Below are positions 38,863-54,519 of a stretch of 64,000 nt of DNA, in pieces. A model generated the notes under the pieces. It did no database searches. It worked only from the letters and a program-made list of their open reading frames with translations, and was not told the DNA's origin. The DNA comes from an uncultured cyanobacterium (GTDB lineage Bacteria > Cyanobacteriota > Cyanobacteriia > Cyanobacteriales > CAWCAG01): NCBI GenBank assembly GCA_963803805.1, contig CAWDOD010000007.1, forward strand, positions 211,717-275,716, written 5' to 3'. A program made the translations under genes and the position numbers. How positions within the stretch are numbered: position 1 is the stretch's first letter; every line of letters starts with the position of its first letter.

Positions 38863-41800
38863 ATGATTCCCCTGCAACTCACCTTAAAAAACTTCCTTAG
38901 CTATCGCGAAGCAACTCTCGACTTTCGGGGATTGCATACAGCTTGTATTTGTGGTGCAAATGGTGCTGGGAAATCTTCTTTATTAGAAGCAATTACTTGG
39001 GCTGTTTGGGGTCAAAGCCGTACTGCTAGCGAAGATGACACTATTAACGCTGGGGCAAAAGATGTACGGGTGGATTTTACCTTCATTTCTAACCAACAAA
39101 CCTATCGGGTAATTCGTTCTCGTACAAGGGGCAGGAGTGCTTCTCTTGATTTTCAGGTAGAGAGTAAAAACGGGTTCCGTTCCTTAAACGCGAAGGGAAT
39201 GCGAGCAACCCAGCAAGAAATTATTGCCCATTTAAAATTAGACTACGATACTTTTGTGAACTCTGCCTATTTACGTCAGGGAAGGGCGGATGAGTTTATG
39301 TTACGTCGTCCTAGTGAAAGAAAGCAAATTTTAGCAGATTTGTTGAAATTAGATCGCTATGAAGAGTTAGCAGAACAGGCAAAGAGTTTTTCTAAACAAC
39401 TGAAAGGACAAGCAGAACAATTACAACAAAGTTTACAACCTCTCCAGGAACAGTTGGGAGAAAAGGCCGCTTTAGTTGAGGAAAAGACTAAGATTACTCA
39501 ACAAATCAAGCAACTGGAACAATTGCAAGAAGGTGATCGCGAAAAATTGCAGCAATTAGCAAAGTTGCAAAATCAGAGGCAAACTTGGCAACAGCAGCTT
39601 AATTGGCAACAAACCCAGTATCAAAATGTCTCCCAAGACTGCGATCGCGCTGTTCAAGAAAGAGAAGCTTTACAAGGGCAGATACAGAGTTTACAAGGGT
39701 TATTAGGTCAAGAAGAGGAGATTAAACAAGGTTATCAACAGCTTTTACAACTACAAAAAGAAGAAGAACTTTTTAGTGGCAAGTTCCAAGTTTATCAAGA
39801 TGCCCAACAAAAAAAGCAGCAGTTGAATCAGGAGTTGGCACAACAAACCAATCAGCTAAACCTACAACTTAGTCAGTATGAAACAAAATTAGAAACCTTA
39901 CTGCAACAGGAACGAGAATTGCAAGAAGTTCTCAGCCGTAGTCAGGAAGTCGCTGTTGCGTTAACACAATTACATAAATGCCGGCAGCGTCTAGGAGAAC
40001 TCGATGAGTTGCAACTTCAGGTTTCTCCTTTAGTACAAAGGCGCAATAACTTACAAATGGAATTGGAACGGGTAGAGGCAAGGTTAAATGCTAGATTAGA
40101 ACAGTTAAGTAATTTGCGGGGAGAACTTCAGGTTCAAGTTAATCAAGTTCCCCAAACACAGCAACAGATTCTGACAGTAGAAGAAGAAATTAAGCAGTTA
40201 GAGAATAAAAAGATTCGTCAGCAAAGGGTTGAGGAAAAGGGAAATGATCAAAAAAGTTTTCAAGAACGTCTCCAAGAACAGCAACGCCTCTTGCAAAGGA
40301 ACTTAGGAGAGTTACAACAAAAGTTGGAGATGCTACAAACTCCAGGGGCAGTTTGCCCTTTATGTGAACAAGGTTTAGATGAGCATTATCGCCAGCGAGT
40401 AGTAAGCAAAACCGAAGCACAACAGCAAGAAATTCAGGACAAATGTTGGGTGTTGCGGGAACAAATGGCTACCTGTGAGAGGGAATTACAAGGCTTACGG
40501 GTAGAGTATGCACAGTTAAGAAAGGAGATGTCCCCCTACAACAATTTATTACAACAAAGGGGGCAATTGGAAGCGCAGTTAGAAAATACCGGAGGAGTAC
40601 AGCAGAGACTATTAGCCATCAATACTGAAACAGCAGAGATTGAACGTTCCTTAGCCGTGGGGAATTATGCTTTAGAGTTGCACGCTGAGTTAGAGAATTT
40701 GCAACAAAAAATAACCTCCCTCAATTACGACGAACAAACCCACGCTTTAGCAAGGGGAGAGGTAGAAAATTATCGCTGGGCGGAAATTAGACAGGCTAAG
40801 TTAGAGGATGCAGGGAAAAGGCAAGGGCAGTTACAAATTCAAAAGCCCCAACTAGAGGCACAAATAGTTAGGAGTAAAAGGGCTATTGAGGAATTGCATC
40901 AAACTTCCCCATTGCAACAGGAAATTGAACGGGTGGAAGAGTATATTCGGGAGTTAGGTTATGAGAGATCGCGCCATAACCAAATCGTCACTGCTGTGAG
41001 GGAAGCTAATTCCTGGCAACTACGCTACCAACAACTCCAGCAGGCACAACAGCAATATCCCCAATTAGAAGCCCAATCACAACAACTTCAACAACGTCTA
41101 GAACAACGTTTGCAAGACCGAGAAACTGTAGCAAAGCAGTTGAAAGATTTGCAAGAGCAAATGTCTCAAAACCCCGATTATAGCCAAGAGATACAGGTAT
41201 TGCAACAACAAGTTCTCCAAGTCAGAAGAAGACAATTAGATCAGCTTTTAGCACAACAAGGAAGCTATGAACAAAGATTGATTCAAATAGATAATTTAGC
41301 CCAACAATTTCAAGAGACACAAAACAAGTTAGAAGAGATTAAAAAACAATATCGCGTTTATCAAGAACTTGCCCAAGCGTTCGGTAAAAAAGGTATTCAA
41401 GCTTTAATGATTGAGAACATTTTACCACAATTAGAAGCCCAAACCAACCAAATTTTAGCACGTTTAACGGGAAATCAATTACACGTTCAATTTTTAACCC
41501 AAAGAGCATCTAAAAGTAGTAAATCGAAACGGAAAGCCACCAAACTAATTGATACTTTAGATATATTAATTGCTGATGCTAGGGGAACTCGTCCCTATGA
41601 AACCTATTCCGGTGGCGAAGGGTTTCGCATTAACTTTGCTATCCGTTTAGCCTTAGCAAGATTACTCGCACAAAGGGCAGGAACTTCTTTACAGATGCTA
41701 ATTATCGATGAAGGTTTTGGTACTCAAGATGCGGAAGGATGCGAAAGATTAATCGCTGCAATTAATGCGATCGCGGCTGATTTTTCTTGTATTTTAACTG

Positions 41801-41892
41801 TTACCCATATGCCTCAATTCAAAGAAGCTTTTCAAAATCGCATTGAGGTAAGTAAGAATAATCAAGGTTCTCAAATATTGCTTTCAAGTTAG
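38863..41892 (+). CDS. sbcC: SbcC/Rad50 ATPase
   Basis: GANGAGKSS, long coiled coil with a CPLC zinc hook, YSGGE, IIDEGFG. Confidence 0.96.
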   Translation: MIPLQLTLKNFLSYREATLDFRGLHTACICGANGAGKSSLLEAITWAVWGQSRTASEDDTINAGAKDVRVDFTFISNQQTYRVIRSRTRGRSASLDFQVESKNGFRSLNAKGMRATQQEIIAHLKLDYDTFVNSAYLRQGRADEFMLRRPSERKQILADLLKLDRYEELAEQAKSFSKQLKGQAEQLQQSLQPLQEQLGEKAALVEEKTKITQQIKQLEQLQEGDREKLQQLAKLQNQRQTWQQQLNWQQTQYQNVSQDCDRAVQEREALQGQIQSLQGLLGQEEEIKQGYQQLLQLQKEEELFSGKFQVYQDAQQKKQQLNQELAQQTNQLNLQLSQYETKLETLLQQERELQEVLSRSQEVAVALTQLHKCRQRLGELDELQLQVSPLVQRRNNLQMELERVEARLNARLEQLSNLRGELQVQVNQVPQTQQQILTVEEEIKQLENKKIRQQRVEEKGNDQKSFQERLQEQQRLLQRNLGELQQKLEMLQTPGAVCPLCEQGLDEHYRQRVVSKTEAQQQEIQDKCWVLREQMATCERELQGLRVEYAQLRKEMSPYNNLLQQRGQLEAQLENTGGVQQRLLAINTETAEIERSLAVGNYALELHAELENLQQKITSLNYDEQTHALARGEVENYRWAEIRQAKLEDAGKRQGQLQIQKPQLEAQIVRSKRAIEELHQTSPLQQEIERVEEYIRELGYERSRHNQIVTAVREANSWQLRYQQLQQAQQQYPQLEAQSQQLQQRLEQRLQDRETVAKQLKDLQEQMSQNPDYSQEIQVLQQQVLQVRRRQLDQLLAQQGSYEQRLIQIDNLAQQFQETQNKLEEIKKQYRVYQELAQAFGKKGIQALMIENILPQLEAQTNQILARLTGNQLHVQFLTQRASKSSKSKRKATKLIDTLDILIADARGTRPYETYSGGEGFRINFAIRLALARLLAQRAGTSLQMLIIDEGFGTQDAEGCERLIAAINAIAADFSCILTVTHMPQFKEAFQNRIEVSKNNQGSQILLSS

Positions 41893-41942
41893 ACGGACAC
41901 GTTGTAAACCAAAGTTGTTAATTAAGTACCTTAAATTAATTT
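41893..41942 (-). pseudogene. 50-bp remnant of a paralog of the 42586-43209 gene
   Basis: 45/50 identical to 43135-43184. Translates INLRYLINNFGLQRVR versus INLRYLIDNFGLQRVR. Confidence 0.8.
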
Positions 41943-42209
41943 ACAGATTTGGAGGTTTACTTTACCAGTGTTGATTTTCACTGCCCGATTTCTTTAATTT
42001 ATGAAGATGTTGTCTTTCCTCAAAATAGTCTAGAGGAATGATGCTAGAGCAATCCAATACAATTTAATCAATAAAAGATTACGGGCGATCGCAATAATAT
42101 TCAGCAGCACAACCCCACACAATTTGACCGAAAAACTTTGGTTTCAAGCCTCCCCTTTCCATTGATATAGTATAAGCTGAGACGCAAATTATACTAAGGA
42201 AACCTGGTA

Positions 42210-42572
42210 ATGTCTACTAAAATAGCTGCTATAGAAGGGGCTGATGGTGAAACTATTTATATTGAATATGATGAAGAAGATACTGAAGCTTTAGAAGCTG
42301 CTGACGATGGCGGATTACAAGCAGTTGGTTATATTGACGATATCAAAGAGCGCACAGAAAAGTTTAAAACAGTGTTGCAAAGCACAATTAAAGGTTACTC
42401 TACTATGGTGTTGAGTACTGTCAAAGAATCCATGCAAGATAAGCTTCAGCCTAGTAAAGTTAGTATGGAATTTGGTATTCAAGCTGGGGGAGAAACGGGG
42501 GTTCCTTTTGTTACGAAAGGCACAGCTCAAGCTAATATTAAGGTGACGATTGAGTGGGAAATTCAGAAGTAG
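42210..42572 (+). CDS. Trypsin-co-occurring adaptor (Trypco1 / CU044_2847-like)
   Basis: Small acidic protein ending in P.KVSMEFGIQAGGETGVPFVTKGTAQANIKVTIEW. Confidence 0.8.
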   Translation: MSTKIAAIEGADGETIYIEYDEEDTEALEAADDGGLQAVGYIDDIKERTEKFKTVLQSTIKGYSTMVLSTVKESMQDKLQPSKVSMEFGIQAGGETGVPFVTKGTAQANIKVTIEWEIQK

Positions 42573-42585
42573 GGAGATAGGGTTC

Positions 42586-43209
42586 TTATGCGATTGTACT
42601 AAGGCGTTTGAGAATTTTTAGGACGCTGTACAGTTCGTTGGTTTGGTTACTGAGAGAAAATTTATCTGCCAAGGAGTATTGGGGATTATTTGCCCTGACT
42701 AATTTGATAAAGCTGAAGTCAGCGCCGTTGGTAATCATGCCGAAGGTTGAGGTATTTTTATTCGGATCTGCCAACATATAGGTGAGGATTTGAGCAATAC
42801 CTTTCTCTAAGGAGAAATCTAATTGCTTTGATTCAATAACTGTCACCCAAAGGTTATTTTCCAAAACTAAAATATCAATCCTGCTATTAATTTTGACTCC
42901 TTCATCTTCGTCGCTTATTTCTATTGATTTTTCACACTTAATCTGAAAAGGAGAAAGGTAAAAACCAGCAACGAATAAAAGAGGGCTGATGATAGTTAAT
43001 TTGACCACATTTTCTAGGACAGGGGGATGGTCAACTAAATTAAAGTAGCTTTCTCTAATCCTGTCTAATTGCAGGGTTTCCATTTCCGTTAACTCTGGTA
43101 AATCTGTTTGCCATTCCCTGAAAAAATTGGGATCACGGACACGTTGTAAACCAAAGTTATCGATTAGGTATCTTAAATTAATTTGTTGTACTGGAGTTGA
43201 AATAACCAT
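42586..43209 (-). CDS. PD-(D/E)xK protein resembling the type I restriction HsdR N-terminal domain
   Basis: E..VK..IISPLL, RIDILVL...VIESK, AQILTYM, GMITNG. Confidence 0.8.
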   Translation of the reverse strand: MVISTPVQQINLRYLIDNFGLQRVRDPNFFREWQTDLPELTEMETLQLDRIRESYFNLVDHPPVLENVVKLTIISPLLFVAGFYLSPFQIKCEKSIEISDEDEGVKINSRIDILVLENNLWVTVIESKQLDFSLEKGIAQILTYMLADPNKNTSTFGMITNGADFSFIKLVRANNPQYSLADKFSLSNQTNELYSVLKILKRLSTIA

Positions 43210-43371
43210 GTGATTAAGTTTTGGGTGTTAAGTTCTGGATGATACCTCATAATTTGAATATAATCGATTTCTCAAACAGCAATATCTCCAACACAGCCGA
43301 AGGAGAATAGTATCATCTTAACCAGAAAATAGACGTAAATAAGTTACACACAGCCTATAATCTTTTAACAG

Positions 43372-46300
43372 ATGGTTATTCATACAATTGATAGGTTACG
43401 GAAATCCACAGTTAAAATTCTTCATCCTGGCAAAGAAAAAGTAGCAGGTTCAGGTTTTTTTATTCGTAATGATGGTTATTTGATTACTTGTCATCATGTC
43501 ATTTTTCATTTACCTGAATTAAAAGTAGAGTATCAAGGGCAAGAATACCAAGCCCAATGGTGTGCAGAATATTCTCGTCCAGAGGTTGATATTGCGGTGT
43601 TGAAAATTGCCGTGAAGGATGCCCCAGCCGTTAAGATTATTAATCCTTCCCAGTTAAACAAGCCTGTTACGGTTTATGGTTTTCCTGGTAAAAAAGAGAA
43701 AAACTTTCCCCAAGGTTTCGATTTTGTAGCTTCAAATATTGCCCCTAGTGCGCCCATTAATACCCTTTCCACTTTTCGAGATTGGAAAATCAAAACGGCT
43801 CATCCTTGGAATCAATTACCATCAGAAACTGCCTTTTTTCATTCCCACAGAATTAACGCCACTGTAGATCCAGGAACTAGCGGTGGTCAGGTTTTCGTTC
43901 CAGATTTAGGGGGAGTGGTAGGAGTTATTCAGTGTAGTAAAAGTGATGAAAGTTATGTGATTCGCTGGGATAATATTCTTGATATTCTTGATAAGTTAGG
44001 TTTAGAACCCCAGAAGCAAGCTGTTTATCAGTTTCTTGGGGAGATTGTAGAGATTGTAGAGCAATATCAATATCTAAAACTATTCCACACCCGAAATAGA
44101 ATAATTCTCAAAGAGCAGTATATCCCCATTCAAGTCACCTTAGAAAGAAGATATCGCCACGAGGTTGAAACTACTTGGGGTTATAGCGAGTCGGAAGCGG
44201 AGTTGAAAAAAGCCTACTCCCTAAAAGGAATGGTTGAGGAAACGAAGAAAACTCAAGTTAACTGGGCAGAAGCGAAAAAAAGCCATAAGAAAATAATGGT
44301 GTTGGCAGATCCGGGGATGGGTAAATCAACCTTGTTACGGCGAGAAGCGTTGGTTGTTGCCCAAGAGCAAAGGAAAAAGCTGGAAAATCAGGAAACAACT
44401 GTTTCGGAAGTGGTTTTTCCTCTGCTATTCCGGCTTTCAGAATTAGCAGCTAGGGAAGGAGAAATTTTTGATATTATCCTTCAACTTCTACAACGGGATT
44501 ATCGCTATACTTACCCTGCTGTTGCCCATCTCCTGGAAGATAAGTTAGCTAAGGGTGAATGTTTATTGCTGTTGGATGCCTTAGATGAAGTGCCGAAGGA
44601 GCAGCGTCTAGGACTGGCAGAAAAGTTAAACCGCTTCGCCAAGCATTATCCTTGTTCGATAATCTGCACTTCCCGCATTGTTGGTTATGGGGGCAGTCTT
44701 GTTACTGGGCAAAAGGATGTAGAAATTGTGCCTTTTAATCAGCAGCAAACGGAAGATTATATTGAGACTTGGTTTAAGAATGCCGCAGAACATTTAGAAG
44801 ATGATTCCGTTTCCGCTTCTGGGTTAATTGAGGAATTGCGCCAGAAACCCCAAATCAGTGGTTTGGCACAGAATCCTTTGCTGTTGTCTTTACTTTGCAG
44901 TCTTTATCAAGAAAAGGGGATTACTCTCCCGGCTAAACGTGGTCAGGTTTATGAAAAAGCCGTTGAGTATATGCTCAGTCAATGGCGCAAAGATAATCGG
45001 CGTTTGGGGGCTGAGTCTGGTTGGGTGGTGGCGAAGACGGAGTTGTTGGAGTTTTTAGCTTATCAGTTTAGTTGCCAGAGTCAAGAGGTTTTTGAGTTAC
45101 GGGAGTTGCGATCGCAGATTGAAGAGTTTTTGCGGGGGAATTGTGATAGTGATTTTCGTAATGTTACGGCTAGGGAGTTGATTAGGGAGTTGATTAGGGA
45201 GTTGACGGAGGAGGATGGCATTATTCAGCAGTTGGACAGGGAAGGGAAGAAGTATCTATTTTTGCATCGTACTTTTCAGGAGTATTTAACCGCAGCTTAT
45301 TTAAACCATTCCGATAACGGTCTTGTTTTAGCGAAGGAGCATTTTTGGGATTTTGATTGGCATGAGACTTTGACTTTGTTAGCGGGGTTGATGGATGATC
45401 CTTTGCCCTTGTTGCAGGCGATTATGGGGGAGAAGGATGATATTTTTCGGACTTTGTTGTTGTTGGCGGGGCGATGTGTTGCTGAGGGGAAAGAGGTTGA
45501 GGATGCTTTGGTTGAGAGGATTGTTGAGGATGTTTATCAGTTTTGGCTTGCTTACCCTGATGCTGAATTTATTAATTCTGTTGTGGTGAGTTTGGGTCAA
45601 GGTAACGGCCAGATGTTGAAGTGGTTACAAGTCGCCCTTGATGACTCTTATAGTAGTATTAGAAAGATAGCTGCCAAGGCTTTGGGGAAGATAGGGAATA
45701 CTCAAGCAGTAGAATTCCTAATTGCTGCTCTTGGTCACTCTGATAGTGATATTAGAAGTTATGCAACGGATAGCTTAAGCAAAATTGACGAAAAAATCTT
45801 AACTACTGCTCTTCGAGATGACGATAGTAAAGTTAGGAAAGGTGCAGTAGAGGCGTTAGAGAAAATTGGTAATGCAAAAGCAGTAAAAGCTTTGGTTTTT
45901 GCTCTTCGGGACGAAGATAGCGAAGTTAGAAGTAATGCAGTAGAGGCTTTAGGTAACATTGGTAATTACAAAGCAGTAAAAGCTTTGGTCTTTGCTCTTC
46001 GGGACTCTAGAAGTTTAGTTAGAAGTAATACAGCAGAGGCATTAGGTAAAATAGGCGATGCTCAAGCAGTAAAACCTTTAATTGCTGCCCTTCGTGACGC
46101 TGATAAATTGGTTAGAAGCCATGCAGCAGAGGCATTAGGTAAAATAGGTGATGCTCAAGCAGTAAAACCTCTAATTGCTGCCCTTTATGACCCTCATAAT
46201 GACCCTGACAATACCAATAAACAAGAGTCTATTTTAGAGTCGATTATCAAGATTGATCCTAGAAATAGTGCAGCAGTAGCATTGGGTATGATTGGTAGTT

Positions 46301-47607
46301 CTCAAGCAGAAGAAGTTTTAATTGCCGCCTTTCATAACTCTGGTATCAATATTGAATATGTGATAGAAGCTTTAAGAAAAATAGGTCATAATCGAGCAGT
46401 AGAAGCCTTAATTGCTGCTCTTGATGACCCTGATGAGGACATTAGATGTTACGCAGCAAGCGGTTTAAGCGAAATTACAAACGTCAAAGCAGTAAAAGCT
46501 TTGAAATCCGCTCTTCGTCACTCTAACAGTAATGTCAGAATGTGTGCAGTGGAAGCTCTAGGTAATATCTGTAATGCCCACCAAAATGATCAAGAAGTGG
46601 TAAAACCCCTAATCACTGCTCTTAATGATTCGGATAGTGAGGTTAAAGAGAGAGCGGCAAAGGTTTTGGGTAATATAGGCAATGCTCAAGCAGTAAAACC
46701 CTTAATTATTGCTCTTAATGATTCGGATAGTGAGGTTAGAAGGAAGGCAGCAGAGGCTTTGGGTAATATAGGCAATGCTCAAGCAGTAAAATCCTTAATT
46801 ATTGCTCTTGACGATCCTTATCGTTGGACTAGATGGAATGCAGCAAAAGCTTTAGCCAAAATTGGTAACACTCAAGCAGTAGACTCCTTAATTGTTGCTC
46901 TTGATAATTATGATAGTAATATTAGACAGTATGCTATAAAGCTGTTAAGCAAAATCGGTAGTGCTAAAGCAGTAGAAGCTCTAATCACCGCTTTGGATAG
47001 TTTTGATAGCGGGGTTAGAGGAACAGCAGCGGAGGCTTTAGGGAAAATCGGTAGCAGTCGAGCAGCAGAAGTTTTGATTGATGCTGTGGATGATCCTGAT
47101 AGCCAAGTTAGAAAGAGTGCTGTAGAGGCTTTAGGAAAAATTGGTCACAGCCGAGCAACAGAAGTTTTGATTGATGCTGTGGATGATCCTGATAGCCAAG
47201 TTAGAAAGAGTGCTGTAGAGGCTTTAGGAAAAATTGGTCACAGTCGAGCAGCAGAAGTTTTGATTGATGCTGTGGATGATCCTGATAGCCAAGTTAGAAA
47301 GAGTGCTGTAGAGGCTTTAGGAAAAATTGGTGATATAAAGACTTTGGAAAAGCTAATTGAACTTCCTCAAATCAATATTTATCATCCTCAAATTTTTTCT
47401 ATAGCTAGAACTTTGGCAGTTCGCTATAGCAGAGAAAAAGCCAATTTTATTCCAGTTTATCGTGAAGAAAAAGTTCGCCCTTCTCCTTTGATAGTGCGTA
47501 TCAAGCAATTCCTGAGAAAGTTAACCATTTTCTTATACCATTTTGCAAAAAAGGTATTATGCCAACTGTGGAGAAAAATCAAACAAGCAATCACCAGTAA
47601 GCATTAA
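43372..47607 (+). CDS. Trypsin-like protease - NACHT NTPase - HEAT repeat protein
   Basis: Protease triad TCHHV / DIAVL / PGTSGG. Walker A ADPGMGKS, Walker B LLLLDALDE, NPLLL, FLHRTFQEY, then many 31-aa VR..AAEALGKIG HEAT repeats. Confidence 0.92.
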   Translation: MVIHTIDRLRKSTVKILHPGKEKVAGSGFFIRNDGYLITCHHVIFHLPELKVEYQGQEYQAQWCAEYSRPEVDIAVLKIAVKDAPAVKIINPSQLNKPVTVYGFPGKKEKNFPQGFDFVASNIAPSAPINTLSTFRDWKIKTAHPWNQLPSETAFFHSHRINATVDPGTSGGQVFVPDLGGVVGVIQCSKSDESYVIRWDNILDILDKLGLEPQKQAVYQFLGEIVEIVEQYQYLKLFHTRNRIILKEQYIPIQVTLERRYRHEVETTWGYSESEAELKKAYSLKGMVEETKKTQVNWAEAKKSHKKIMVLADPGMGKSTLLRREALVVAQEQRKKLENQETTVSEVVFPLLFRLSELAAREGEIFDIILQLLQRDYRYTYPAVAHLLEDKLAKGECLLLLDALDEVPKEQRLGLAEKLNRFAKHYPCSIICTSRIVGYGGSLVTGQKDVEIVPFNQQQTEDYIETWFKNAAEHLEDDSVSASGLIEELRQKPQISGLAQNPLLLSLLCSLYQEKGITLPAKRGQVYEKAVEYMLSQWRKDNRRLGAESGWVVAKTELLEFLAYQFSCQSQEVFELRELRSQIEEFLRGNCDSDFRNVTARELIRELIRELTEEDGIIQQLDREGKKYLFLHRTFQEYLTAAYLNHSDNGLVLAKEHFWDFDWHETLTLLAGLMDDPLPLLQAIMGEKDDIFRTLLLLAGRCVAEGKEVEDALVERIVEDVYQFWLAYPDAEFINSVVVSLGQGNGQMLKWLQVALDDSYSSIRKIAAKALGKIGNTQAVEFLIAALGHSDSDIRSYATDSLSKIDEKILTTALRDDDSKVRKGAVEALEKIGNAKAVKALVFALRDEDSEVRSNAVEALGNIGNYKAVKALVFALRDSRSLVRSNTAEALGKIGDAQAVKPLIAALRDADKLVRSHAAEALGKIGDAQAVKPLIAALYDPHNDPDNTNKQESILESIIKIDPRNSAAVALGMIGSSQAEEVLIAAFHNSGINIEYVIEALRKIGHNRAVEALIAALDDPDEDIRCYAASGLSEITNVKAVKALKSALRHSNSNVRMCAVEALGNICNAHQNDQEVVKPLITALNDSDSEVKERAAKVLGNIGNAQAVKPLIIALNDSDSEVRRKAAEALGNIGNAQAVKSLIIALDDPYRWTRWNAAKALAKIGNTQAVDSLIVALDNYDSNIRQYAIKLLSKIGSAKAVEALITALDSFDSGVRGTAAEALGKIGSSRAAEVLIDAVDDPDSQVRKSAVEALGKIGHSRATEVLIDAVDDPDSQVRKSAVEALGKIGHSRAAEVLIDAVDDPDSQVRKSAVEALGKIGDIKTLEKLIELPQINIYHPQIFSIARTLAVRYSREKANFIPVYREEKVRPSPLIVRIKQFLRKLTIFLYHFAKKVLCQLWRKIKQAITSKH
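47059..47331 (+). repeat. Three near-identical 93-bp HEAT-coding repeats
   Basis: CGAGCAGCAGAAGTTTTGATTGATGCTGTGGATGATCCTGATAGCCAAGTTAGAAAGAGTGCTGTAGAGGCTTTAGGAAAAATTGGT... x3. Confidence 0.95.
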
Positions 47608-47625: not shown

Positions 47626-47982
47626 CTAAAAATTAGTTTGACGGATGCGAACAGCAGTTTGACTAACAACAGTCAAAGCTTCTGGTAACTCATCTGTATG
47701 TTGCTCAATTACTTGAGAAACAATCTCTGCTTTTTGATTGGGAGATAAGCCGGGTAATCTAATCAATATAACTCCTGCCGTAACGCTTTTGAGGCGAAAT
47801 ACTAACTCACCAAAATCTTTATCTCCTGTTATTAAAGGAGCATCTTGTTCATTTGCTATGTAGAGTACAGTTTCATCGGAAATTCCTGGCTCCATTTCAG
47901 CCACAAACCAAACAGTATGTCCATCCTCACGAAGACGAGTAACAATAGGCTCATCGATATTTTCATCTGCTACGAAATTCAC
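47626..47982 (-). CDS. DUF5615 PIN-like toxin
   Basis: MNFVADENI, G.SDE.VL, LITGDKDFGEL. Overlaps the upstream DUF433 gene. Confidence 0.88.
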   Translation of the reverse strand: MNFVADENIDEPIVTRLREDGHTVWFVAEMEPGISDETVLYIANEQDAPLITGDKDFGELVFRLKSVTAGVILIRLPGLSPNQKAEIVSQVIEQHTDELPEALTVVSQTAVRIRQTNF

Positions 47983-48224
47983 GATGCTTGCTGAGGAAGA
48001 GGATAAATCGCTTCAGCCCTTAAAACATCCAAAGCAAAAGCCAAAGCCGCTAAAATTCCTTCGTGGGTTAAGCGAGGATGAGCCGCGAGAATTTGTTCTT
48101 TGCTTTCACCCGCAGCTAACTTTTCGAGGATTAATTCAACAGTAATGCGAGTTCCAGTAATAACAGGTTTACCCATCATCACATTAGGGTTAGAGGTAAT
48201 GAATTGTTTGGGTTGCTGTTCCAT
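47979..48224 (-). CDS. DUF433 antitoxin
   Basis: NPNVMMGKPVITGTRITVELIL..LAAG...ILAAHPRLT. Confidence 0.92.
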   Translation of the reverse strand: MEQQPKQFITSNPNVMMGKPVITGTRITVELILEKLAAGESKEQILAAHPRLTHEGILAALAFALDVLRAEAIYPLPQQAS

Positions 48225-48335
48225 AACTCAAAGTCAAACACTTACTCCCAAATCATATCCTTTTTCAGTCTTATATCTGTGGTAAGTTGTGGAATCGCTA
48301 TAGTTATTAGGATACACTCTTCAAAATAGCCCAAA

Positions 48336-49477
48336 AGACCTCTCCGGAAATAGCCAAAGTTATACAGTACAGTCTTTGAGATGGCAGTTGCCTTGACCCA
48401 AAGATAGCTCTATTCTACGGTTTAATAAGTATTTGAGAAAGCTACTACCCATAACTAACAAAAAGATAGCTCTAATTAGATAGTTATTTGCCAAGGGCAA
48501 GGGCAGATATATCTTCACTAAAACACAGAAGTACCAATTCTTAATCTCACTAACCCACAAATTGTCGTAACTACCTGCTCATATTTATGGGAATTTAATC
48601 TGAATCTTTCACTAGCTACTCTAAATATCTTAATTAATCTAATTAAATGTTCTACGAATATTCGCTCCTTAGCTAGCTCTTTATTTATTTGTTTTTCTTG
48701 AGCATTTAGTTGTTTTTTTCTCGGCTTTTTCAGAGGCGTTGTCGTTGATTTGTCTCCTTGATAAGCTTTATCTCCCCTAAATCTTTGCTGCTCACTAAAT
48801 TTTGTTTTCGTTTCCCTAAATATTTTGATATCACTTTTTGGACCCGGTAAACCCGCTTCAACATCGACGACCAGATTGACCTTTTGGTAAAACAATTACT
48901 TGAGTTTTTCTTGTGTGATTAGCTTTTTTACCTGAGTAATACTTTTTCTGCTCTTCATACTCTCCAGGTCTTTCGATGGGCTGCTCATAGCTATCTACAA
49001 TTAACTCGAACTCTGCTAACATCTCTTGGACTATTTCATAGTCACACTCGTTTTTTTTACCTGCTCATAGATACTTGCTGGTAATAATTCTCCTATTAGG
49101 GGACACCAATAGTTAAAAATATTATTGGCAGTTGTTTCACTGACACCAAACTGAATCCCTAGTAGCTGAAATGTCGTTAAGTGTCGTAAATATGTTAAGG
49201 TTAGGATTACTTGTTCTGGTGGAGATAGTTTCGCTTTTCTACCACCTCCAGAGCCAATAATTCTGACTTTTTGAGCTTCCGCTAGTTTTCGTTTTTGAGC
49301 CTCTAGTTCAATAGCCTTGGAGAGCAGTTTTTCTAACTGTTCATATTTTAAACCTACTAAACGCTGAGATTCTCTGGGATGTTGCTGGATATATTCGAGT
49401 ATTTTACTCATTATTTCTGGTTAAAAATTCTATTTTATCTTCTTTTATCATAGTTTGATTCTTTTTCGGAGATGTCT
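48336..49477 (-). mobile_element. IS5-family (ISL2-like) element; transposase in split frames
   Basis: TIRs AGACCTCTCCGGAAAT (48336) and rc AGACATCTCCGAAAAA (49477). HTH ORF 49031-49411, A8C slippery site at 49050-49058, middle frame with VDSYEQPIERP..QKKYYSGKK, second break near 48875, DDE C-part GDKAYQG...RIFVEHLI (ends 48518). Confidence 0.85.
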
Positions 49478-49570
49478 AATAGATAATATCAACGGGTCAT
49501 CGGTAATTGTCCACCCATCCTTAATTAAAGCATTTTTTACTTGATTGTGATAAATATCTTTAGCTGGCAT
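49478..49570 (-). pseudogene. xisH: xisH 5' fragment truncated at the IS end
   Basis: MPAKDIYHNQVKNALIKDGWTITDDPLILSI abuts the IS terminal repeat. Confidence 0.85.
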
Positions 49571-49579
49571 TGAGATTAT

Positions 49580-49933
49580 TTATTTTTCAAATATTTGATT
49601 GGCATAGGATTCCCCTGAAGCTACCCTTTCTTCTCGAAGTTGACGCAATCTTGCAGAAACTGGTGGAGGATTAAGTTTTTGCTCCTCTCGCATTTGATGT
49701 CCCCACTCTAGCCAGTCAGCGATGTAGTGAGTAATTTGTTCCTTGTTCTGGAGATAATAAAGAATCGTGGCGTAAGTTTGCTCTAAGTTTAGGGATGGAT
49801 AGGTTTTAGCAATTTCTTCGGGAGTGAGGCTACGATAAATATAGTCATACAGAATTGTTTCAATGCCAATCCGTGTACCTTTCAGACGAATATCATTAGG
49901 AGCAAGAAAAATAAAGTAGTTTTCTAGTTGCAT
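49580..49933 (-). CDS. DUF433 family protein (orphaned antitoxin)
   Basis: IRLKGTRIGIETIL...TPEEIAKTYPSLNLEQTYATILYY. Confidence 0.85.
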   Translation of the reverse strand: MQLENYFIFLAPNDIRLKGTRIGIETILYDYIYRSLTPEEIAKTYPSLNLEQTYATILYYLQNKEQITHYIADWLEWGHQMREEQKLNPPPVSARLRQLREERVASGESYANQIFEK

Positions 49934-49984
49934 TGTTGTATCATTATCGACTTATTAAATCAATCCCTTAAAATCATAACCTCT

Positions 49985-50226
49985 TTAGGCAACACCATAA
50001 CCCGTATAAGGACGTTTATAAGGTGGATGCAATCCAAGTACAATATCTTCTTTTGCAATACCCATTTCTATCAACTCTTCACCAACATCAACATCAGTCG
50101 CGTTGTGCTGAAGCTAGATTTTCCTTTCCTTAATATCGAAATGTAAAACAGTATAATAAACCCTTTCCAAACCCTTCCAACCAACTCGCATGAGTTGATA
50201 ATGTTCCCTAATGGGATCAAAAAGAG
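49985..50226 (-). pseudogene. xisI: xisI pseudogene (5'-truncated, internal stop)
   Basis: FDPIREHYQLMRVGW...HFDIKERKI*LQHNATDVDVGEELIEMGIAKEDIVLGLHPPYKRPYTGYGVA*. Confidence 0.85.
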
Positions 50227-50239
50227 GTAATAAGCGAGT

Positions 50240-50436
50240 CTGTTAGTCAATTACCATCTCAATGGACAGCAGCCTAACCTAATATTGAATGGAAGAAAAT
50301 CAAACAACTCCGTAATCGTTTAGCTCACGAATATTTAAGTATCAATTTTGATATAATCTGGGAAATTATCGAAAGAGATATTACTGAACTTGAAGAAACA
50401 ATTGAAGCAATAGCGCAAGAGTTTTGGGAGCTTTAA
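50240..50436 (+). pseudogene. HepT/DUF86 HEPN ribonuclease fragment
   Basis: SQLPSQWTAA*PNIEWKKIKQLRNRLAHEY..INFDIIWEII with the HEPN RxxxxH motif. 5' part missing. Confidence 0.82.
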
Positions 50437-50442
50437 CTTTAG

Positions 50443-50500
50443 TGCGTAGGCATAGTCTTGCGACAATGCTTACGCAAACGCGAAGCGGGTCGCCCCTACA
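50443..50500. repeat. REP-like hairpin plus GTAGGGGCG-type end
   Basis: TGCGTAGGCAT...ATGCTTACGCA followed by GCGGGTCGCCCCTACA. Confidence 0.55.
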
Positions 50501-50519
50501 TAATGATATTTCTTCCTAA

Positions 50520-50855
50520 TCAACCTACTGCAAACTCTGTATGATGCCTAATTTTCGGAGGATGAAAAGCTAAAACAATTCTCTCTTTCGCAATGCCACC
50601 TGCAACTAAATCATCAGCAATACCATCTTCTAAACCATCCCGATGTATCCAAACCTTATCGTCAATAATTTCTAAATGAACCACACAACCATGAACTTTC
50701 ACATCCTTGCGCCAACCTATGGTCATTAACAAATAATCCCTGTGGTCATCACTAATAACCAATTTATGTTTTAAATTTTTATCGTAATAAGGAAGGTCTG
50801 CATACTCTTTAATAATCGGATAAATAGTATCATAAAGTTCTTTTAACTTATCCAT
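50520..50855 (-). CDS. xisI: XisI family protein
   Basis: DYLLMTIGW...HGCVVHLEIIDDKVWIHRDGLEDGIADDLVAGGIAKERIVLAFHPP. Confidence 0.92.
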   Translation of the reverse strand: MDKLKELYDTIYPIIKEYADLPYYDKNLKHKLVISDDHRDYLLMTIGWRKDVKVHGCVVHLEIIDDKVWIHRDGLEDGIADDLVAGGIAKERIVLAFHPPKIRHHTEFAVG

Positions 50856-50900
50856 TGTAAAATAGTCTCCTGTTTAGCATCAAAAACTATTAAATTTATA
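50843..50900 (-). pseudogene. xisH: xisH 3' fragment
   Basis: INLIVFDAKQETILQWIS* overlaps the xisI start, as in intact xisHI pairs. Confidence 0.75.
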
Positions 50901-50954
50901 ATCTTTCTTTTTAAAAAAAAACTTTATTCAGGAGTATAATTGCGATAAATATTA

Positions 50955-51710
50955 CTATATCAACTTTAAAAGTTCTACCCAACCTGATTCCATATTTCTT
51001 TTTGGACTTCTGCCTGCCCCAGGTTGATAAATCCAGCCCTGAAAATCAATCTTTAACTTCTGCAATTCATCGGCTACCGTTTTACCAATAATCCAAACCT
51101 TAGCTTCGGGAAAGCGAGACCATAAACCAGCACCATAATCTTCCCACCAAAAGCGATGTAATGTGGATTTTATTTGATTAGAAACTCGCTTACCTCCCGG
51201 TAGATACATCGCGTGAATAGAAGCATCTATCACCCAAACTCCCTTAGCTTGCATCTCTTGTAAAGTAGCAACCTTCCAGGCTAAGCGATCGCTTAAAGAA
51301 ACCCCTGTGCTTTTTCGAGGTTGCTTTCCCCTGAGTGTTAATTTACCAAACAAATCCCAAAACTGCCTTGTTCCTGCATTCCTCTGCACAGTCTGGGCGG
51401 ATAATAGCTCTGGTTCCCCATAGCCTAAACAATAAATTAAGCGAACAAACTCTTCGGGAGTATGTTGGGCAACAGCAGGCAAGCACTGTTTTTGTACCGT
51501 TAAACCAAAATCTTGAGCAGAAGTATAAATATGAGACTCTGCAATTAAGATTACCGAAATATTCTCCGGTCGCCAAGCCCAGCGATGTTTTTCCACCGCT
51601 AAAGCTACTTGAGGTAATTCTGGTTCAAACCCAGCTTCCTTAAGCAAATTAGCCCCTTTGTTTTGGCTGATTTTAATTTTCTGTTCTACCCAAACAGGAA
51701 TCTGGGACAT
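50955..51710 (-). CDS. Hypothetical protein, possibly uracil-DNA glycosylase superfamily fold
   Basis: RP..ISVILIAES, N.GT.QFW, GVWVIDAS, IIGK.V and QP.A occur in UDG-like order. Start chosen at MSQIP (track start 51776). Confidence 0.55.
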   Translation of the reverse strand: MSQIPVWVEQKIKISQNKGANLLKEAGFEPELPQVALAVEKHRWAWRPENISVILIAESHIYTSAQDFGLTVQKQCLPAVAQHTPEEFVRLIYCLGYGEPELLSAQTVQRNAGTRQFWDLFGKLTLRGKQPRKSTGVSLSDRLAWKVATLQEMQAKGVWVIDASIHAMYLPGGKRVSNQIKSTLHRFWWEDYGAGLWSRFPEAKVWIIGKTVADELQKLKIDFQGWIYQPGAGRSPKRNMESGWVELLKLI

Positions 51711-51872
51711 AATATCTTTTTTTGTGTTGGAGATATGGTGGTTGGAAAGGGGTAAGGGGAAACCATTATTTTCCAAATACTCTCTACCCCCTACCCCCTA
51801 CTTTTATCAAAAACCAAAAGTGTTGAGGTCAAAACTTATTACTTATTACTTTCAACCCAACACTGCTCCGTG

Positions 51873-53204: not shown

Positions 53205-54446
53205 TTACTTTTTATTTTGCCTGTCAAGCTGATGAGCTTCCTCTATAGCTGCTTTTTCTTTAGCTCTTTGGGCGAATGGTTGCAACTGTTCAATTTCCCT
53301 ACCGCTTAAAATACTCAAATTTTCTAAATCTATCCCTTTACTGAGCATTTCTACACACCATGTCTGTTGTGCTTGCTTTAAAGTTGGTGGTTGGGCTTGG
53401 GGTGTTAGTAAACCTGTGTTTAAAGTTTGCCATAAAGTTTCTAATTCTTTTTGGGAAATAGGCTGCTTTTCCTCGTTGAGAAACAAGGCTGATTGTTCAT
53501 CCTTACGGGTTTTTAGCCACTGAATAACTGGATCACTCTCAGCAAAGCCATAACGTTTGCCCATAATCCACTGGTTGAGAGGCACTTGTCTAATTGCACC
53601 TTGATTAATCTGTAAGATACGTTGTCCAGATTCTTTAATAAAGTGCCATCTCTCTAAATTGATCACTTCCTGGGGTGATAAACCTGCGCCAAACAAGACA
53701 TAAACTAAAGCATACTCTTGTCGTCCTTGTTTCTTAGCTTGTCGAAAAATGGCACGAACTAAATTAGCTGGTAAATCTTGTATTTGCTTTTGATTAACTG
53801 AAGATGACGGAGTTTCTGAAAAAATCTCTGTTTCAGTAGAACTAATAATAGCACCATGTAAAAATAGCTCTACCAAACTAGCTAAAAAATCCTCTCTTTC
53901 TAACCAAAGTCCATCTCCTTCAGTTTCAATAGTTGAGTTGATAGTAAAGTAACCGAGGATCAGCCCATTGAGTAAACTGCTTAAGGTTTCGGCTGGGAAA
54001 CGGACTTCTAATCCTTCTTGGGCGATCGCCCTAGCTAAATGCTTTGCTATATGTTGATTAGCTTCTATTAATCTTTGCCCTAAAGCCAAACGATTTTCTG
54101 GAGGATACTGCCCCGCTTCTCCTAGGACAGAGCGTACTAATTCAGGAACTTTTTCTAAAGCATCTAAACTATTCTGGGTGTAATCTTGCAAAACTTGAGC
54201 AATACTAGGTTGAGAATCACCTTTTTCCCCTAAAGTTTGCTCTAAATGGGCAAATAGTCTCAAATTTTCCGTTACAGCCAGTAATAAGCCGTGCTTACTA
54301 CCGAAATGCCTAAATAAAGTGACTTCATTCACCTGAGCGCGATCAGCTACAGCTTTAGTAGTAGTATCAGTAACTCCTCTTTCCGTAAATAACTCTAGTG
54401 CAGCCTCAATTAAACGGGTTTTGGTCGATTTTTTTCCAGCAGCCAT
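53205..54446 (-). CDS. TetR-family regulator fused to a degenerate tyrosine-recombinase-like domain
   Basis: HTH TTTKAVADRAQVNEVTLFRHFGSK. C-domain ALVYVLFGAGLSPQEVINL...RQVPL...ALFLN...LKQAQQTWCVEMLSKGIDLENLSILSG. Start taken at ATG 54446. Confidence 0.85.
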   Translation of the reverse strand: MAAGKKSTKTRLIEAALELFTERGVTDTTTKAVADRAQVNEVTLFRHFGSKHGLLLAVTENLRLFAHLEQTLGEKGDSQPSIAQVLQDYTQNSLDALEKVPELVRSVLGEAGQYPPENRLALGQRLIEANQHIAKHLARAIAQEGLEVRFPAETLSSLLNGLILGYFTINSTIETEGDGLWLEREDFLASLVELFLHGAIISSTETEIFSETPSSSVNQKQIQDLPANLVRAIFRQAKKQGRQEYALVYVLFGAGLSPQEVINLERWHFIKESGQRILQINQGAIRQVPLNQWIMGKRYGFAESDPVIQWLKTRKDEQSALFLNEEKQPISQKELETLWQTLNTGLLTPQAQPPTLKQAQQTWCVEMLSKGIDLENLSILSGREIEQLQPFAQRAKEKAAIEEAHQLDRQNKK

Positions 54447-54456
54447 AAATAAAAAA

Positions 54457-54519
54457 TGCAAGTAATACTTGCACTATCTCACAATACTTGCTACATTGAA
54501 TATGTAAGCACCACTTGCA
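54457..54519. promoter_or_regulatory. Putative operators of the TetR fusion
   Basis: Perfect palindrome TGCAAGTA-A-TACTTGCA (54457-54473), half site TACTTGC (54485-54491) and a degenerate copy TGTAAGCACCACTTGCA (54503-54519). Confidence 0.72.

Follow-up and report, generated by a model that had tools for sequence, protein, structure and literature searches.

A candidate Pepco-protease cell-suicide module with a trypsin-NACHT-HEAT sensor in a cyanobacterial genome, split by a nuclease gene that is most likely a passenger

We examined a three-gene locus in a stretch of 64,000 nucleotides (nt) from an uncultured cyanobacterium of the order Cyanobacteriales (contig C7, positions 211717-275716, of a 5.3-Mb genome labeled G000). 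This whole stretch is called the window below, and coordinates given without a contig are positions in it. The locus consists of a Trypco1/Pepco gene for a protein of 120 amino acids (aa), P0001 (42210-42572, plus strand); a gene for a solitary HsdR_N-type PD-(D/E)xK nuclease of 207 aa, P0002 (42586-43209, minus strand); and a gene for an NLR-like sensor protease of 1411 aa with trypsin-NACHT-HEAT architecture, P0003 (43372-47607, plus strand). All three open reading frames (ORFs) were found at exactly the coordinates and on the strands that a first-pass annotation of the window had assigned to them. In our judgment, the locus is probably a two-gene, NLR-like, protease-gated cell-suicide module of the abortive-infection type, made up of P0001 and P0003, with the nuclease gene as a passenger. 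By its profile matches, the module falls within the Pepco/Trypco1-protease class, which was already catalogued (Kaur et al., 2020) and has one bench-tested member (Evans et al., 2025). The window locus leaves the picture of this class unchanged, and it is a candidate for bench work rather than a surprise.

P0001 matched both the Trypco1 profile (PF19493; E = 1e-19, 71.4 bits against a cut-off of 24.6) and the NCBIfam CU044_2847 profile (NF041216; E = 4.4e-22, 78.6 bits against a cut-off of 23) in profile searches, and it had 94 homologs. The first-pass annotation had described a 120-aa, Trypco1-like gene co-oriented with the 1411-aa gene and had named these two profiles as the check on it; the protein passes both. 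We next compared the locus with a sample of 301 genomes of the order, window genome included (genomes carry labels in G, loci labels in L), using residues 1-720 of P0003 as the query. A NACHT match at E ≤ 1e-30 was present in 97 of the 301 genomes, and an ortholog that also spans the protease domain was present in 14 genomes other than that of the window, where fragments and pseudogenes in G010, G184, G246, and G135 were excluded from the count. At all 13 testable orthologous loci, the large gene is immediately preceded, on its own strand, by a Trypco1 gene whose product is 52-65% identical to P0001; L069, the 14th locus, was left out because its contig ends 375 nt past the gene start. Thus, the linkage of homologs that the first-pass annotation had singled out as a second check is borne out. 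The two genes are tightly spaced in 8 of the 13 loci, with a 4-nt overlap or a gap of 6-19 nt, and are 91-267 nt apart in the other five, where the first start codon is taken as the start of each ORF. None of the 13 loci has a nuclease gene between the Trypco1 and NLR genes.

The same linkage is absent from relatives that lack the protease. Protease-less NACHT-HEAT proteins were found at 13 loci, matching P0003 from residue ~211 onward with 47-84% identity, and a Trypco1 gene was found upstream of none of the 12 of these loci that could be examined (over 0.85-1.5 kb, and over longer stretches as well). At their N-termini, these relatives carry an EAD10 domain (G027 and G165), a CHAT domain (G289 and G175), an HTH-like region (G144 and G193), or no effector at all (G097, G152, and G135). 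The protease and Trypco1 are therefore present or absent together, which implies that they form one swappable effector module on a shared NACHT-HEAT chassis. The locus and its relatives thus provide a clean natural example of a swappable effector position on a bacterial NLR, where the chassis can have at its N-terminus a trypsin domain, always accompanied by Trypco1, or EAD10, CHAT, an HTH-like region, or no such domain. One such exchange is visible between congeners. In the same-genus genome G027 (contig C5, ~1941131-1944760; L022/L051/L099), a NACHT-HEAT protein is 84% identical to P0003 from residue 211, with EAD10 in place of the protease; this gene occupies another locus than that of the window and has no Trypco1 gene in the flanks examined. 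Decayed copies of the module were also observed. L044 (G246, contig C45) joins the N-terminus of Trypco1 to part of a NACHT domain interrupted by stop codons, and L046 (G010, contig C138) has an intact Trypco1 gene before a protease domain that is disrupted by a stop.

Within the window genome, four of the five Trypco1 genes adjoin a protease gene. Besides P0003, the neighbors are one trypsin-nSTAND1-WD40 gene and two caspase-type genes, and the fifth Trypco1 gene is an orphan without a protease neighbor (contig C2, 534161-534547). The trypsin-nSTAND1-WD40 protein (1722 aa) has its Trypco1 gene directly upstream (contig C2, 792150-797757, minus strand). This pair resembles the window pair in having two adjacent genes on one strand, with no gene between them; it differs in belonging to the nSTAND1 clade and in having a WD40 sensor, and its Trypco1 protein had no detectable similarity to P0001 (tblastn, E ≤ 1e-3). 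The two caspase-linked Trypco1 genes are divergent from a Peptidase_C14-iSTAND gene (520 aa) or a Peptidase_C14 gene (459 aa) (contig C1, 137502-139503, and contig C10, 35061-36929; L016 and L017). The proteins encoded by these two Trypco1 genes end in ...CTFPNND and ...CKFPNSSQ. A search for Trypco2 (PF19631) in the window genome found none.

The domain order of P0003 is that of a sensor protease. A serine protease domain of the trypsin-like type (aa 26-185; 43447-43926, plus strand; Trypsin_2, 5.1e-14) is followed by a NACHT NTPase core (aa 309-470; 44296-44781, plus strand; PF05729, 9.8e-8, 32.4 bits against a cut-off of 26.7) and by an array of HEAT/PBS-lyase-type repeats in 31-aa (93-nt) units (aa ~753-1330; 45628-47361, plus strand; HEAT_2 1e-117, HEAT_PBS 4e-80). 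These are the features that the first-pass annotation had read from the translation as a His/Asp/Ser triad, NACHT Walker A and B motifs, and a long HEAT array, and the profile matches agree with that reading. We then aligned the window protein with 14 orthologs found elsewhere in the order. All 15 sequences share, without any change, the protease motifs TCHHV (39-43, with the His at H41 or H42), D73, and GTSGG (S170), together with the Walker A motif GMGKST with K318. In the Walker B motif LLLLDALDEV (398-407), D402, D405, E406, and V407 are invariant, and positions 403-404 are substituted in a few sequences. When aa 1-720 were compared with solved structures, the only matches were to HtrA/DegP-type proteases, covering residues 17-104. 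Among the orthologs, three from one genus (L067, L068, and L069, in G216, G097, and G135, respectively) have a P-, G-, and K-rich insertion of ~35-90 residues right after the NACHT Walker A motif, near NLR residue 340.

Past the array, P0003 ends in a C-terminal cap (47362-47604, plus strand; ...LEKLIELPQINIY...ARTLAVRYS...FIPVY...), and the corresponding motif (...INIY...ARTLAVR[YF]S...FIPVYP...) also ends all 12 orthologs with an available C-terminus. This shared cap implies that the P0003 gene is complete. By contrast with the conserved motifs of the protease and NTPase, the repeat array varies greatly. Counted from its first HEAT-like unit up to the cap's FIPxY motif, the array spans 605 aa in P0003 compared to 122-465 aa in the 10 orthologs that were measured, and two congeners whose N-termini are 92% identical have HEAT arrays of 463 and 122 aa. 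In P0003, three tandem 93-nt units toward the end of the array (47032-47331, plus strand) are near-identical, with 96% matches in DNA and identical protein units, which suggests that the array has recently expanded in frame. Conserved protease and NTPase parts joined to a rapidly varying repeat sensor, the pattern that these alignments suggest, would be expected of an NLR-type receptor, and the HEAT array is presumed to be the ligand sensor of P0003.

P0003 matched no named family of anti-phage NACHT proteins. The PADLOC models gave no Avs match and only HEAT, RT-protease, and other partial matches, and the score against the NCBIfam EruA model was 42.9 bits, compared to a cut-off of 1000, so that P0003 is not a member of that family. 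NLR-related bacterial NACHT proteins (bNACHT) are said to act against phages, reportedly in work by Kibby and colleagues from 2023. With these proteins and with EruA, P0003 shares a NACHT NTPase, an N-terminal effector, and a C-terminal sensor region. In the PHROGs database, there was no family for Trypco1, the NLR N-terminus had weak protease matches, and P0002 had a weak endonuclease match; this search gave no sign of a phage origin for the proteins of the locus.

P0001 agrees in outline with a pore-forming protein of the Pepco kind. In an AlphaFold2 (AF2) monomer model with a predicted local distance difference test (pLDDT) score of 61, a hairpin at the N-terminus is followed by a long helix (45-74) and then by a long hairpin (83-115). 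The two beta strands of the long hairpin (83-92 and 100-116) are amphipathic, and their beta moments were matched by just 12 and 7 of 1000 shuffled sequences, respectively. This alternation of hydrophobic and polar residues is consistent with a barrel whose outside faces lipid and whose lumen is polar. P0001 ends in ...KVTIEWEIQK, and the consensus C-terminus of its orthologs is KVTIEW[DE]L (alignment A1, 30 sequences). In this 30-sequence alignment, position 114 is I in 28 sequences, as in P0001, and V in two, and E115 and W116 are invariant. The tail that follows W116 is rich in K, Q, P, and S and has 3 to ~19 residues in the orthologs; in P0001 it is very short, with 4 residues. A complex prediction for four Trypco1 copies reached a median score of 0.27, where the mark is 0.42, and weighs neither way. 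A comparison of the Trypco1 sequence with solved structures gave no match at E ≤ 10.

The closest experimental counterpart is SsPepco of Streptomyces subrutilus, as described in a preprint whose authors equate Pepco with Trypco1 and Trypco2 (Evans et al., 2025; bioRxiv 10.1101/2025.11.14.688446). According to this source, SsPepco forms heat- and detergent-stable beta barrels of 9 to 10 subunits, which are already assembled before cleavage, and the trypsin domain of SsAvs4 cuts SsPepco after Ile97, shedding a 2-kDa C-terminal tail and thereby arming the pore. Both Pepco and the catalytic Ser are required for toxicity of the SsPepco-SsAvs4 pair, E. coli is killed by a Pepco form whose last residue is Ile97, an amphipathic helix of SsPepco is required for its toxicity, and the pair responds to phage portal proteins (Evans et al., 2025). 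The window pair is similar in having a small gene upstream of a STAND NTPase with an N-terminal trypsin-like protease and C-terminal sensor repeats, in the predicted amphipathic beta strands of its small protein, and in a conserved Ile near the C-terminus of P0001 (I114), a possible counterpart of Ile97. It differs in that P0003 is a NACHT protein with a HEAT array and not an Avs4, in that the tail past the conserved strand of P0001 has 4-6 residues compared to the ~20 reported for SsPepco, and in that the window pair is split by a gene on the opposite strand. The word NACHT has no occurrences in the main text of the Evans preprint, and literature searches turned up no experimental work on trypsin-NACHT-HEAT proteins. 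Trypco1 and Trypco2 are described by Kaur et al. (2020; eLife, PMC7159879) as neighbors of trypsin-like peptidases in NTP-dependent conflict systems, a class that they report as enriched in multicellular bacteria and whose parts include STAND NTPases and HEAT-type repeats. The window locus shares with these pairs a Trypco1 gene beside a trypsin-like peptidase and the STAND and HEAT-type parts. In contrast, the description by Kaur et al. (2020) centers on vWA-MoxR (VMAP) ternary systems, and there were no vWA or MoxR genes among the annotated neighbors of the window locus (ORFs scanned across 47.6-54.5 kb, and two upstream ORFs read by eye); on the basis of these neighbors, the locus does not belong to such a ternary system.

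By analogy with SsPepco and with established STAND/NLR behavior, we propose that the module would work as follows. The HEAT array of P0003 would bind a ligand, probably derived from phage or from damage, and binding would lead the NACHT domains to oligomerize. Oligomerization would gather and activate the N-terminal trypsin-like domains, which would then cut Trypco1 near its C-terminus, probably after I114, shedding ~6 residues (EWEIQK). The trimmed Trypco1, as an oligomeric amphipathic beta barrel, would permeabilize the membrane and cause cell death, as in the one family member studied. P0001 is thus likely a pore toxin that forms a beta barrel and is activated by a protease, if the Pepco findings carry over. 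The sensor-NTPase-protease logic put forward in the first-pass annotation is consistent with the domain order of P0003 and with this literature. That annotation had also cast Trypco1 as an adaptor, acting as cofactor or substrate; the work on Pepco argues for the substrate role and against the label of adaptor or cofactor, in that the small protein would itself be the death effector. Given the short tail of P0001, its activating cut may differ from that of SsPepco. This tail of a few residues could be used to test whether exposure of a C-terminal Ile, and not removal of a long tail, arms the pore.

We then considered the gene that separates the pair. P0002 is encoded convergently with Trypco1, with a 13-nt gap, and divergently from the NLR gene, with a 162-nt gap, and the Trypco1 and NLR genes are consequently 799 nt apart. 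An inverted, HsdR-N-like PD-(D/E)xK gene between the pair had been claimed from the sequence, and the profile search agreed: P0002 matched HSDR_N (PF04313; 1.3e-7, 32.1 bits against a cut-off of 25.1) on the opposite strand, and the PADLOC PD_DExK model at 4.5e-7. In an alignment of 26 family members, E93 and E126-x-K128 are invariant and D112 is nearly invariant. Many solitary HsdR_N-type nucleases of filamentous cyanobacteria, named "restriction endonuclease subunit R", are ~208 aa long and 53-85% identical to P0002, and P0002 shares their E...D...ExK residues; there is no helicase or methylase partner nearby. The AF2 model of P0002 has a pLDDT of 80. In VIA-align comparisons, it aligned with DrdV (Z 8.4; root-mean-square deviation [rmsd] 3.5, 125 residues aligned), BpuSI (Z 8.0; rmsd 4.3, 136 aligned), and an HsdR fragment (Z 7.6; rmsd 3.4, 108 aligned), all in a Z range that the tool rates as common, and two mitoribosomal chains outranked these nuclease domains (Z 11.1 and 10.3). 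A Foldseek search of the model against the Protein Data Bank (PDB) gave nothing at E ≤ 0.001, and its top rows were ribosomal proteins with poor TM-scores.

The distribution of this nuclease family is that of a scattered, multi-copy gene. At E ≤ 1e-40, the family has six matches in the window genome and occurs in 169 of the 301 genomes, with up to 10 copies each. At the default threshold, the window genome has eight matches, among which are six full-length copies with P0002 as one of them, another full-length copy with an internal stop, one partial copy, and one short relic. The neighbors of the paralogs in this genome are genes for a tRNA synthetase, an alanine racemase, a sugar epimerase, HNH and Uma2 nucleases, a transposase, an NB-ARC fragment, and an EAD10-GUN4 protein. 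In other genomes, none of the best 29 nuclease loci has a Trypco1 or protease-NACHT gene within 1.5 kb. Moreover, relics of the 5' coding part of the gene occur elsewhere in the window genome. A 50-nt relic (codons ~9-25; 41893-41942, minus strand) is 90% identical to 43135-43184 and abuts the stop codon of sbcC, and a 78-nt relic on contig C11 (198573-198650) is 86% identical. These relics suggest, from sequence comparison, that the nuclease gene or a close copy of it moved or recombined more than once. We had considered the 50-nt repeat as a trace of a tandem duplication of the nuclease and Trypco1 genes together, and dropped this idea; the homology is confined to 50 nt and the adjoining intergenic DNA is dissimilar, so that we claim 41893-41942 solely as a rearrangement relic.

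The absence of the nuclease from between the two genes at all 13 orthologous loci, its scattered multi-copy family, its lack of linkage at the 29 best loci, and the relics favor the conclusion that the P0002 gene is most likely a later passenger insertion that stands outside the mechanism of the module. The first-pass annotation had allowed for either a passenger or a third component; the 13 orthologous loci favor the former and disfavor the latter. A member of this solitary family would have landed between the two genes in this lineage. The insertion implies that the Trypco1 and NLR genes need separate promoters, or else that transcription passes through the antisense gene.

Several observations weigh against a working two-gene module with a passenger. 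P0001 is nearly tailless, whereas SsPepco loses a 2-kDa tail; the AF2 monomer model of P0001 is weak, as its pLDDT indicates; and its helix at 45-74 (30 residues) shows no significant amphipathicity, as 83 of 1000 shuffled sequences reach the same value. Transfer of the pore mechanism to P0001 also depends on the equating of Pepco, Trypco1, and Trypco2 by Evans et al. (2025) in their preprint. The insertion splits two genes that most orthologs keep in a tight operon, and a scan of 41800-43500 by crude consensus, which does not cover all promoter types, found no promoter-like site on the plus strand. The four sites that it found are all on the minus strand and fall below the mean of 5.6 for shuffled sequence, and the same interval contains no terminator-like site. 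The nuclease is also not a stranger to NACHT-HEAT genes: in one other genus, NACHT-HEAT genes without an effector are followed ~240 nt downstream by a full copy (G097 and G152) or by a remnant (G135), and in G216 a copy lies 1.3 kb downstream of a trypsin-type gene. Finally, the closest homologs of Trypco1 (P0006, 89% identical) and of the nuclease (P0099, 85% identical) both list the same sources and a longest contig of 3404 nt, such that the split arrangement may be shared with a relative and have been retained.

A rival reading is that of a decaying relic, whose two genes, uncoupled by the insertion, would have ceased to function together. The close spacing found in 8 of 13 orthologs is replaced here by a 799-nt gap with an antisense gene inside, the surrounding island holds a broken insertion sequence (IS) and nuclease relics, no plus-strand promoter-like site turned up in the crude scan, and module copies have decayed elsewhere (L044, and L046, where the NLR gene has a stop). 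However, the ORFs are intact over 1411, 120, and 207 codons, the catalytic residues are all conserved, and the three newest HEAT units were expanded in frame; moreover, the promoter scan was a crude consensus match that covers some promoter types. We regard decay as unlikely. A retained three-part system, in which the nuclease would serve as a second effector or as a regulator that damps the toxin gene by convergent transcription, is somewhat less probable still. It would fit the intact nuclease ORF with its E93...D112...E126-x-K128 residues, the 13-nt distance from the Trypco1 stop codon without a terminator-like site between, the copies beside NACHT-HEAT genes in G097, G152, and G216 and the remnant in G135, the two further paralog loci in the window genome that adjoin an NB-ARC fragment or an EAD10-GUN4 gene, and a 3404-nt contig that the closest homologs of Trypco1 and the nuclease may share. 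Yet the nuclease is inside none of the 13 orthologous pairs and within 1.5 kb of Trypco1 or the protease at none of the best 29 nuclease loci, its gene is on the opposite strand, and its closest homolog, P0099, has N instead of D112. The adjacency cases in other genomes all come from one genus with 6-10 nuclease copies per genome, and one of these copies is reduced to a remnant.

A more radical version of this idea, to which we give little credence, is a rewired three-part system, in which the split would be no accident and a near-tailless Pepco and the longest HEAT array among the measured orthologs would be combined with a captured nuclease, which would either be a second effector that targets DNA or restrain the toxin gene in antisense. 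If it were true, the effector-less NACHT-HEAT genes with nuclease copies would be a sister design with the nuclease as sole effector. These genes (L108 in G097, contig C162; L109 in G152, contig C125; and L110 in G135, contig C122) encode proteins of 950 aa, with the nuclease copy, or its remnant in G135, on the same strand, and from their arrangement in this other genus they could possibly be sensor-plus-nuclease pairs in their own right. It is also conceivable, but very improbable in our estimate, that the same machinery serves programmed death or kin conflict within filaments instead of phage defense, along the lines proposed by Kaur et al. (2020). The class is reported as enriched in multicellular bacteria (PMC7159879), the relatives come from filamentous cyanobacteria, judging by their source names, and for NACHT-HEAT sensors there is no trigger on record, of phage origin or otherwise, with NACHT unmentioned in the main text of Evans et al. 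(2025). In contrast, the sole Pepco-protease pair to have been tested answers phage portal proteins (bioRxiv 10.1101/2025.11.14.688446), and the island around the window locus also holds toxin-antitoxin and IS genes, a frequent setting of defense genes. On balance, a two-gene, protease-gated suicide module carrying a passenger nuclease gene is the reading that we prefer.

The locus occupies the start of this island. Upstream lies sbcC (38863-41892), with a flavodiiron-type gene before it; these two identities come from inspection of the translations by eye and not from profiles. When the window is compared with G027, a genome of the same genus, similarity breaks off 4 nt short of the end of the sbcC stop codon, and another gene follows in G027, which implies that 41893 to ~50950 is a variable island. 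Downstream of P0003, the interval 47626-50855 is filled by a DUF5615 (PIN-like)/DUF433 pair of toxin-antitoxin type (47626-48224, minus strand), a broken IS transposase split into two ORFs with DDE_Tnp_4 and HTH_Tnp_4 fragments (48518-49411, minus strand), an orphan DUF433 gene (49580-49933), and XisI, as identified by a profile scan; a gene for an HtrA-type protease is also found downstream. G+C content is 0.31-0.39 at 48000-51000, compared to 0.39-0.46 inside the NLR gene. The "TA-rich island" that the locus was said to border therefore holds in both senses of the term, as toxin-antitoxin genes and as low G+C. Farther downstream, a 273-aa ORF (50955-51776) matched no Pfam family, and a 418-aa ORF (53205-54461, minus strand) has an unusual combination of an N-terminal TetR_N domain and a weak C-terminal match to Phage_integrase (9.4e-6, below the cut-off).

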